In this document: positions 18,401 to 21,400 of the stretch, one piece after another
Numbering within the stretch: the first letter of the stretch is position 1
Layout: each line of letters starts with the position of its first letter
NCBI RefSeq assembly: GCF_013167455.1
Contig: NZ_CP038328.1
Length of the DNA stretch: 64,000 nucleotides
Reading direction: 5' to 3' (one strand)
From: Escherichia coli O157:H7
GTDB lineage: Bacteria; Pseudomonadota; Gammaproteobacteria; Enterobacterales; Enterobacteriaceae
Program-made: the position numbers

Positions 18401-21400
18401 CTTTAGCAACGCTTGTTGCCGCAACGCTGACGTTGTTGCTCGGGCGTAAGTTGGTCCATTCCGTCTCCTTTTTGAAGAAATACACCATACCGGAACCTGT
18501 TGCGGGTGGTTTGTTGGTGGCGCTGGCGCTACTAGTACTGAAAAAAAGCATGGGCTGGGAAGTCAACTTTGATATGTCCCTGCGCGATCCGTTAATGCTG
18601 GCTTTCTTCGCCACCATTGGCCTGAACGCCAACATTGCCAGTTTGCGTGCCGGTGGGCGTGTGGTTGGCATCTTCTTGATTGTGGTTGTTGGTCTGTTGG
18701 TGATGCAAAATGCCATTGGCATTGGTATGGCTAGCCTGTTAGGGCTTGATCCGCTGATGGGGCTGTTGGCCGGTTCTATTACGCTTTCCGGCGGTCACGG
18801 TACGGGCGCTGCGTGGAGTAAATTGTTCATTGAACGTTATGGCTTCACCAATGCGACGGAAGTGGCGATGGCCTGTGCAACGTTCGGTCTGGTGCTGGGC
18901 GGCTTGATTGGCGGTCCGGTGGCGCGCTATCTGGTGAAACACTCCACCACGCCGAACGGTATTCCGGATGACCAGGAAGTCCCGACGGCGTTTGAAAAGC
19001 CGGATGTGGGCCGCATGATCACCTCGCTGGTGCTGATTGAAACTATCGCGCTGATTGCTATCTGCCTGACGGTGGGGAAAATTGTTGCGCAACTTTTGGC
19101 TGGCACTGCTTTTGAACTGCCGACCTTCGTCTGTGTACTGTTTGTTGGCGTGATTCTGAGCAACGGTCTGTCAATGATGGGCTTTTACCGCGTCTTTGAG
19201 CGTGCGGTATCCGTGCTGGGTAACGTAAGCCTGTCGTTGTTCCTGGCGATGGCGCTGATGGGGCTGAAACTGTGGGAGCTGGCTTCGCTGGCGCTGCCGA
19301 TGCTGGCGATTCTGGTGGTACAGACCATCTTCATGGCGTTGTATGCCATCTTCGTTACCTGGCGCATGATGGGCAAAAACTACGATGCGGCAGTGCTGGC
19401 TGCGGGTCACTGTGGTTTTGGCCTCGGTGCAACGCCAACGGCAATCGCCAACATGCAGGCGATCACTGAACGCTTTGGCCCGTCGCACATGGCGTTTTTG
19501 GTGGTGCCGATGGTCGGTGCGTTCTTTATCGATATCGTCAATGCGCTGGTGATTAAGCTGTATTTAATGTTGCCGATTTTTGCCGGTTAAAAATGAAAAA
19601 GCGTCGGAAGGAACCGGAAACGCTACGTGAACACTGTCGCCATATTTTTGGTGATGAGCCGCCAGTGCTCTGTGTATGGGAAACGGAATTTGATTACGCA
19701 GATGCCGAACTCAAGGCGCTGGCGGCTAAAGAGTGGCAGCAGATCAGCGAATGGGATTTGAGTGCTTACTATGTACTCAATCTCGTTTATAACGAACCGA
19801 TGCAAATAGAGTTGTTTCGCTATCTGTTTCCGCTCTGCCTGGCGCAATGGCATGAAACCGTTTTAGCTGGCGGTTATGGTGATCACTTCGAAGAATCCTT
19901 AATGAAGGCATTGTGTCGGCCCTATCTCTGGCAGGAGATGATGAATGCTTCCCAACGCCAGCAGGTACGGCAATTTTTACTGGACACCGCGTTGCAGCGT
20001 ATGGATAACGAGCGTGGTTTCAATAACGTTCTTTGCTGGCTGGCGGTGTTCAATACTCTGGGTGGGGCCGCGCCGTTAATTCGTTCTCTCTGGTCGCGCT
20101 GGTGGGCGCTGGATACGCCAGGAAAAGCGGTGTGTGCTATTCAGTATGCCGCGCATCTAATTTATCCCATAGAAGCCAATCCGTTATGGTCGCAAGAATG
20201 GATAGGCTGGGGGCATCCATTAGGCCATAAAGATGGCTGGTCCTCTGATAATCGCGCTTTTCTTCGCCAAATGTTAACACCTGAAATGATTGTGGCTGGC
20301 GTACAGGCAGCGGCTGAAATTCTGCGTGGTGAACCGGAAGGCGCAATGGCGGCGCGAATTGCACAGGATGCGTATGAGGCAATGGATATCCTCACTATCC
20401 AGATTGAAGATTTACTGCGTGACTTGTCTTGTGATGAGTCTGGTCATGCGTTGGAGTAACGTTCCGTCTCCGGCATCCAGCGTTCTATCAGGGCTTTTGC
20501 TTGTTGTGGGTAACGTTCGTGAATATGTCGCGCCAGGCGCTGAACTTCCGGGATCATCGCCTGATCGCGCAGTAAATCCGCCACTTTAAACTCAGCATTA
20601 CCCGTCTGACGCGTACCTAACAGTTCACCCGGTCCGCGAATCTCTAAGTCTTTCTGTGCAATCACAAAACCGTCGTTGCTGTCGCGCAGCACTTGCAGCC
20701 GAATTTGCGCGGTTTTGGAGAGCGGCGTTTTGTAGAGCAGCACGCAGTGAGAAGCCACCGCACCACGACCTACACGCCCGCGAAGCTGGTGTAACTGCGC
20801 CAGACCCAGACGCTCAGGGTTTTCGATAATCATCAGGCTGGCGTTAGGCACATCAACACCGACTTCAATAACGGTAGTGGCAACTAGCAGATGTAGCTCA
20901 CCTTGTTTAAACGACGCCATCACCGCCTGTTTCTCGGCTGGTTTCATCCGCCCGTGTACCAGGCCAACATTCAATTCTGGTAGCGCCAGTTTCAACTCTT
21001 CCCAGGTAGCTTCCGCCGCCTGCGCTTCCAGTAACTCTGACTCTTCAATCAACGTACAAACCCAGTACGCCTGACGACCTTCAGTTATGCAGGCGTGGCG
21101 CACGCGGTCAATGATGTCGGTACGGCGGGTATCAGGAATAGCGACCGTAGTCACTGGCGTGCGGCCTGGCGGCAGCTCATCTATCACCGAGGTATCGAGA
21201 TCGGCATACGCCGTCATTGCCAGCGTGCGGGGGATCGGCGTGGCGGTCATGATCAACTGATGCGGATGGAAGCCTTGCTGCTGGCCTTTCTCCCATAACG
21301 CCAGACGCTGATGCACGCCAAAGCGATGTTGTTCGTCGATAATCACCAGCGCCAGACCGTTAAACTGCACCTGTTCCTGGAAGATGGCGTGCGTACCAAC

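Follow-up and report, generated by a model that had tools for sequence, protein, structure and literature searches.

The stretch of DNA analysed here, called the window below, comprises 64,000 nucleotides of one strand of Escherichia coli O157:H7 (contig NZ_CP038328.1 of the assembly GCF_013167455.1). Our subject is an open reading frame (ORF) that lies between gltS and recG (Table 1). The gltS stop codon TAA (19588-19590) is followed by two nucleotides (AA) and then by the ATG of the ORF, and the last 16 nt of the ORF overlap the 3' end of recG. A preceding reading of the same DNA, made from the sequence alone, had described this placement, and the ORF list, the raw sequence and the annotation transferred from EDL933 all agree with it. 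The same reading called the product rich in tryptophan and cysteine; the count is 13 Trp (4.5%) and 7 Cys (2.4%), and the pI is 4.9. It also saw no obvious Shine-Dalgarno sequence, and indeed no such motif is found 5' of the ATG, where the upstream sequence is gccggttaaaaATG.

Table 1. Features of the gltS-recG junction in the window.
Feature	Position	Strand	Description and source
gltS, sodium/glutamate symporter, WP_000468836.1	18385-19590	+	upstream gene; ORF listing, EDL933 annotation
Ybl159 ORF	19593-20459	+	288 aa, ATG start; ORF listing and raw sequence
Segment without K-12 counterpart	19591-20447		blastn of window against MG1655
ORF/recG convergent overlap	20444-20459		16 nt; ORF ends HALE*, recG ends SNA*
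recG	20444-22525	-	convergent neighbour; coordinates transferred from EDL933 annotation

The ORF is already catalogued in other strains and is thus not new, since both RefSeq and UniProt hold entries for it. RefSeq lists it as the 'hypothetical protein' WP_000747329.1 (an EDL933 gene, to which the window DNA is identical), and the UniProt entries to which the product is 99-100% identical bear the name Ybl159, which we use from here on. The recG gene closes the annotated gene row spoT-trmH-recG, and gmk and rpoZ lie upstream in related loci. We note that the plain ORF list starts recG at a GTG at 22558 (704 aa), whereas RefSeq gives 693 aa from 22525; the extension to 22558 overlaps the 3' end of trmH and is probably unused. 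The other end of recG differs between alleles as well. Its last codons, Ser-Asn-Ala-stop, read TCC AAC GCA TGA in the window and TCG AAT GCG TAA in K-12 and CFT073, i.e. there are three synonymous changes and another stop codon within 12 nt, precisely in the stretch that recG and the ORF share.

An open frame of 288 codons has a chance of approximately (61/64)^288, i.e. roughly 1e-6, and this reading frame is conserved across genera. Between E. coli and Salmonella the pN of Ybl159 is 0.189 and the pS is 0.743; the corresponding values of the neighbours are 0.036/0.607 for recG and 0.039/0.551 for gltS. The pN/pS ratio of Ybl159 is about 0.25 in comparison to Salmonella and also in comparison to Superficieibacter. 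As pN is well below pS, the protein is constrained; judged by these substitution values Ybl159 is under purifying selection, yet its rate of evolution is about five times that of the two flanking genes. The codon bias of Ybl159 is low (GC3 of 50% versus 62-65% in the neighbouring genes).

The homology searches are in agreement with a coding gene. A phmmer search of 1.84 billion cluster representatives returned 297 clusters at 50% identity (E <= 1e-3), and nearly all of the full-length members have 280-310 amino acids and can be aligned end to end. The phmmer and hmmsearch matches span the whole length as a single domain, with E values from 1e-164 to 1e-12. An alignment of 64 members shows the common motifs FD, LQPxLFxYLFPxCLxxW, LWxxWW, G177, NP and W216..N220. 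Full-length homology, these common motifs and, in Enterobacteriaceae, a position close to recG place the product in what we call the Ybl159/STM3745 family, after its E. coli member and the presumed Salmonella one. The AlphaFold2 model calculated with the family alignment is all-alpha, with 15 helices, a pLDDT of 93 and a pTM of 0.90. Taken together, the comparisons leave us with little doubt that Ybl159 would be a genuine, vertically inherited coding gene.

In K-12 the ORF is missing. The sequence-only reading had described gltS and recG as immediate neighbours there and would have regarded the ORF as simply core if an identical copy were present. In the blastn comparison of MG1655 with the window the homology ends at 19590, i.e. 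at the gltS stop, and restarts at 20448, and the alignment shows that MG1655 has a spacer of 168 bp with REP-like palindromes in this place (locus L002, 4293-4460). A third arrangement is seen in CFT073, where the spacer has only 33 bp (locus L030, 798-830) and is made up of a GC-rich hairpin plus a T-run, with a stop codon on either side. By eye, the K-12 spacer has the appearance of the short CFT073 hairpin (a bidirectional terminator) with about 135 bp of REP/BIME-like sequence inserted into its loop. The short allele starts with ATGAAGCGGCGG, which resembles the ATGAAAAAGCGTCGG of the ORF; the match is very short, and the start of the short allele may be a remnant of the ORF.

The frequency of these alleles was surveyed in 5426 complete E. 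coli genomes. The ORF is present in 1917 of them, and 1872 of these copies are at least 99% identical to the query, 1911 cover at least 80% of it, and the copies listed are annotated as one ORF. The carriers include O157:H7 EDL933, O26, O103, O121 and BL21/C43(DE3). Every E. coli copy is chromosomal, none being located on a plasmid. The K-12-type spacer is found in 1873 genomes and the remaining ones have the short CFT073-type allele, so that the three alleles account for about 35%, 35% and 30%, respectively. A spread sample of 60 entries gave 21 of the ORF type, 21 of the K-12 type, 17 of the short type and one with an IS3 element in the middle of the ORF type, which it interrupts. In E. coli OkiPb01684 (locus L031, 6603-8782) an IS3-family element lies inside the ORF and leaves two annotated pseudogene fragments.

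Orthologues are found at the same site in other enteric bacteria. The Salmonella enterica orthologue is 71% identical and lies directly 3' of gltS; over the Salmonella orthologues at this locus the identity is 66-71%, and one Salmonella cluster has 283 aa. The Superficieibacter orthologue (66%) has other upstream genes and a small extra ORF before recG, two metagenome enterics have recG-proximal orthologues that are 48% and 55% identical, and Enterobacter sp. kpr-6 has one at the recG-proximal site too. The enteric orthologues all point towards the 3' end of recG, which closes the gene row gmk-rpoZ-spoT-trmH-recG, and the 16-nt overlap with recG recurs in the orthologue of locus L008, which is the 55% identical one. 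When the genomes are ranked by their pN distance from E. coli, Ybl159 gives Salmonella < Superficieibacter < L008 < L015 ~ L006, and RecG gives Salmonella < Superficieibacter = L008 < L006 < L015. The two orders are nearly equal, which fits vertical descent.

The Salmonella orthologue is called a 'putative cytoplasmic protein' and is probably STM3745 of LT2; the 852-nt size of STM3745 agrees with the 283-aa Salmonella cluster. One paper lists STM3745 as a 'cytoplasmic protein' gene of 852 nt, with a truncation in the Typhimurium D23580 lineage (PMC3853940). Apart from this one listing of a truncated gene, the literature search for Ybl159 returned no function and no publication.

An origin from a mobile element, be it an insertion sequence, an island or a prophage remnant, was considered and rejected: there are no flanking repeats and no mobility genes around the ORF, no plasmid copies in E. 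coli, and no Ybl159 copy among the IMG/VR viral contigs.

The likeliest history, as far as it can be read from the compared sequences, would be that of a gene already present in ancestral enterobacteria and then lost more than once, including in K-12 and in B2-type strains. Loss is the likelier direction because orthologues occupy the same site in other enterics and because the alleles that lack the gene carry a REP-containing spacer (K-12) or a 33-bp hairpin (CFT073). Replacement by recombination via the conserved flanks may be an alternative history. The small lineage-specific insertion that the sequence-only reading had offered as one possibility is not supported by these data: the ORF occurs in several lineages of E. 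coli (35% of the complete genomes), lies at the same recG-proximal site in other genera, diverges in nearly the same order as RecG and is accompanied by neither flanking repeats nor mobility genes. In other words, the direction of the event has to be corrected: K-12 would have lost the gene, rather than O157 gained it.

The other possibility raised by that reading, a translational coupling to gltS, remains plausible in view of the orthologue junctions and of the sequence between the two genes. The start codon follows the gltS stop by 2 nt in E. coli and by 1 nt in Salmonella, and in locus L006 the two overlap as TAATG. None of these three gltS-following orthologues has a Shine-Dalgarno sequence, whereas orthologues without an upstream gltS bear strong ones, i.e. 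GGGAGG in L015, GAGGAG in L008 and AGGGAGG in L004. The absence of the motif after gltS and its strength in the stand-alone genes are as translational coupling predicts. A simple scan revealed neither a promoter nor a terminator between gltS and the ORF. It is therefore somewhat more probable than not, as judged from the junctions, that Ybl159 is translationally coupled to gltS. Transcription in E. coli would then start at the gltS promoter, and translation would proceed by termination and reinitiation after gltS. In K-12 and CFT073 a terminator hairpin trails gltS; the window allele lacks it, so the gltS-Ybl159 and recG transcripts should converge and overlap. The orthologues thus offer a clean natural example of one gene that has a stop-start junction after gltS and a strong Shine-Dalgarno sequence when it stands alone.

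The sequence-only reading had found no recognisable domain in the product, and the database searches are in accordance with this. Pfam gave no match for Ybl159 or for any of the 64 aligned members, and NCBIfam, PHROGs and a sequence-profile search of the PDB gave none for Ybl159. In PADLOC-DB no family was matched at E <= 1, i.e. Ybl159 resembles no known anti-phage defence protein in that collection, and Rfam had no match in positions 19000-21000. When AFDB50 was searched with the model by Foldseek, every hit was either a member of the family itself or an uncharacterised protein. The members are acidic throughout (median pI 5.0, range 4.4-6.3) and Trp-rich. It has no obvious catalytic motif, and its sequence properties point to protein binding rather than to RNA binding or catalysis; the uniform acidity in particular favours a protein as the ligand over RNA. 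Ybl159 is acidic and Trp-rich like the rest of this family of about 300-aa proteins, and it is predicted to be an all-alpha, possibly HEAT/ARM-like, cytoplasmic protein.

The hosts of the family are Enterobacteriaceae, Leminorella, Cupriavidus, Saezia, Zoogloeaceae, Sulfurovum, an Armatimonadetes metagenome-assembled genome (MAG) and, above all, Planctomycetota. Some of the neighbourhoods outside the enterics deserve mention as such. In a Zoogloeaceae MAG (locus L005, 1869-3241) the homologue lies downstream of ssb, and its start shares 4 nt with the stop of a gene for a retropepsin-like aspartic protease (PF13650/PF13975). The homologues of a metagenome contig (L010, 5381-7643) and of Cupriavidus campinensis (L017, 5176-8520) have two unannotated neighbours in common, a divergent upstream gene of 158 and 220 aa, respectively, and, on the downstream side, one of about 175 aa. 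These neighbours belong to a series of small ORFs close to a transposase-type HTH gene.

The gene neighbourhoods of the family are mostly heterogeneous, and RNA-repair genes are one recurring theme. Two Planctomycetota MAGs, L022 (4557-9646) and L024 (4070-9027), have the arrangement hen1-X-pnkp, in which X is the Ybl159 relative and the frames overlap or abut; both flanking genes encode full-length proteins, i.e. Hen1 (TIGR04074) and Pnkp (TIGR04075). In the short contigs L045 (102-1377) and L053 (3-1050) the hen1 stop overlaps the start of the Ybl159 relative. Another arrangement is seen in L026 (5986-9046), L027 (4125-10252) and L042 (7437-11449), where the Ybl159 relative heads a cassette with two genes of RlaP nucleotidyltransferases (PF10127) and a small gene between them. 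The gene between the two RlaP genes of L042 encodes an R2K ATP-grasp protein (PF18299), and a Pnkp gene follows. In L027 a HDIG-kinase gene and a gene for an FCP1-like phosphatase are upstream of the Ybl159 relative, and a Pnkp gene begins about 5.5 kb downstream. A 433-aa protein without a Pfam match is encoded after the L027 cassette, and the same protein follows pnkp in L024; this protein (fam33) and several other neighbours had no match in Pfam, NCBIfam or the PDB. We note that an RlaP-type neighbour was also tried as a paralogue of the Ybl159 relative and was rejected, the hhalign probability being 0.4%.

In one further locus, L064, an ATP-dependent DNA ligase gene ends 37 nt upstream of the Ybl159 relative. 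In a plain count, 8 of about 30 distinct non-enteric loci adjoin genes for the healing or sealing of nucleic-acid ends, in at least three architectures. The seven RNA-repair loci (L022, L024, L026, L027, L042, L045 and L053) fall in one planctomycete-type clade, in which the relatives are 43-58% identical to each other and only 31-37% identical to E. coli Ybl159. Among the proteobacterial members none has RNA-repair neighbours. The relatives are thus encoded together with hen1, pnkp or RlaP genes in these seven loci, whereas in the window the neighbours are gltS and recG.

The explanation that we prefer as a whole is that of a genuine, old accessory gene that is coupled to gltS and that serves as an accessory in RNA or nucleic-acid damage; we would regard this combination as neither probable nor improbable. 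Without a catalytic motif, Ybl159 could act as a protein-binding accessory or regulator in the RNA or nucleic-acid damage response, for instance as an adaptor with an acidic alpha-solenoid fold. The reason to think of RNA damage is that the planctomycete-type relatives sit in the cassettes hen1-X-pnkp and X-RlaP-R2K-RlaP-Pnkp and that one relative follows a gene for an ATP-dependent DNA ligase. A role of Ybl159 itself that is related to RNA repair is put forward with low confidence. We consider it similarly conjectural that the Ybl159/STM3745 family might be a non-catalytic third component of bacterial RNA-repair systems and that the stand-alone enterobacterial copies might keep a related role. 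An acidic solenoid of this kind could recruit, regulate or shield repair enzymes, or it could trap a ribotoxin. E. coli is not known to have Pnkp/Hen1. The stand-alone enterobacterial copies might help to cope with RNA damage, e.g. together with RtcB/RtcA or against tRNase toxins.

It is unlikely, in our view, that Ybl159 has decayed or lost its function in E. coli, i.e. that a gene once functional is now a neutral sequence that is kept where it has not yet been deleted and that yields little or no protein. A remnant would hardly be expected to show 1872 of 1917 copies with at least 99% identity and 1911 with at least 80% coverage, a pN/pS ratio as low as the one found against both Salmonella and Superficieibacter, preserved family motifs and an abutment to gltS that is conserved in three genera. 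Nevertheless, several observations are of the kind that decay would leave. About 65% of the complete E. coli genomes lack the gene and carry one or the other of two deletion-type alleles, one strain has an IS3 insertion in it, and many of the UniProt entries are fragmentary. In one lineage of Typhimurium the probable Salmonella orthologue STM3745 is truncated (PMC3853940). There is neither a Shine-Dalgarno sequence nor a promoter of its own, codon bias is low and the protein evolves fast. Four of these points, namely the dispensability in about 65% of E. coli, the low codon bias, the IS3 interruption and the truncation of STM3745, also weigh against the explanation that we prefer. Further points against it are that the RNA-repair neighbourhoods are confined to one distant clade and are not seen in proteobacterial members, that most gene contexts differ from one another, and that E. 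coli is not known to have Pnkp/Hen1.

The uniform acidity and the Trp-rich composition of the family would suit an immunity-type inhibitor, i.e. an acidic protein that blocks a basic toxin by binding to it, the toxin being a nuclease or ribotoxin of the colicin, CDI or anticodon-nuclease kind. The patchy presence and absence is typical of conflict genes, and the members in L010/L017 and L066 lie in islands of small unannotated ORFs beside transposases or integrases. Moreover, relatives occur in RNA-repair cassettes, which counteract ribotoxins (PMC4411300). We still hold this role to be quite improbable: no toxin gene is adjacent in any of the loci examined, no Pfam immunity family and no PADLOC entry is matched, a protein of about 300 aa is large for an immunity protein, and the enteric position is a stable chromosomal site rather than a toxin locus. 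An accessory of one of the neighbours, i.e. of the GltS glutamate transporter or of RecG and DNA repair, is suggested by the abutment to gltS in E. coli, Salmonella and L006, by the 3' end of recG, which is the constant neighbour in enterics even without gltS, and by the distant relative behind the DNA ligase gene. We find it very improbable, however, as the orthologues in L004, L008, L015 and L036 have no adjacent gltS and possess their own Shine-Dalgarno sequences, and outside the enterics neither gltS nor recG adjoins the gene. Ybl159 is convergent to recG and is therefore not co-transcribed with it, and the protein is predicted to be soluble and acidic. A role specific to gltS was rejected, the orthologues persisting beside recG where gltS is absent.

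For the window alone, the result is an ordinary presence/absence polymorphism of an accessory gene between K-12 and other E. coli. The interest lies in a family of about 300 clusters that has no Pfam entry and that is repeatedly found inside RNA-repair cassettes with Pnkp, Hen1 or RlaP. If the accessory role in nucleic-acid damage is true, the family would open a testable way to a partner in bacterial RNA repair that has gone unrecognised, and it would suggest a first functional hypothesis for a gene of O157:H7, BL21 and Salmonella.

The comparison with known systems can be put as follows. The Pnkp/Hen1 (two-gene) and Pnkp1-Rnl-Hen1 systems are described without a third all-alpha component in the portions of the reports used here (PMC3675462, PMC4411300). 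E. coli Ybl159 differs from the Pnkp/Hen1 systems in that it has no Pnkp, Hen1 or RlaP neighbour. The likeness is found in its relatives, which lie between hen1 and pnkp in the Pnkp/Hen1 cassettes and ahead of RlaP-R2K-RlaP-Pnkp in the RlaP/R2K cassettes.
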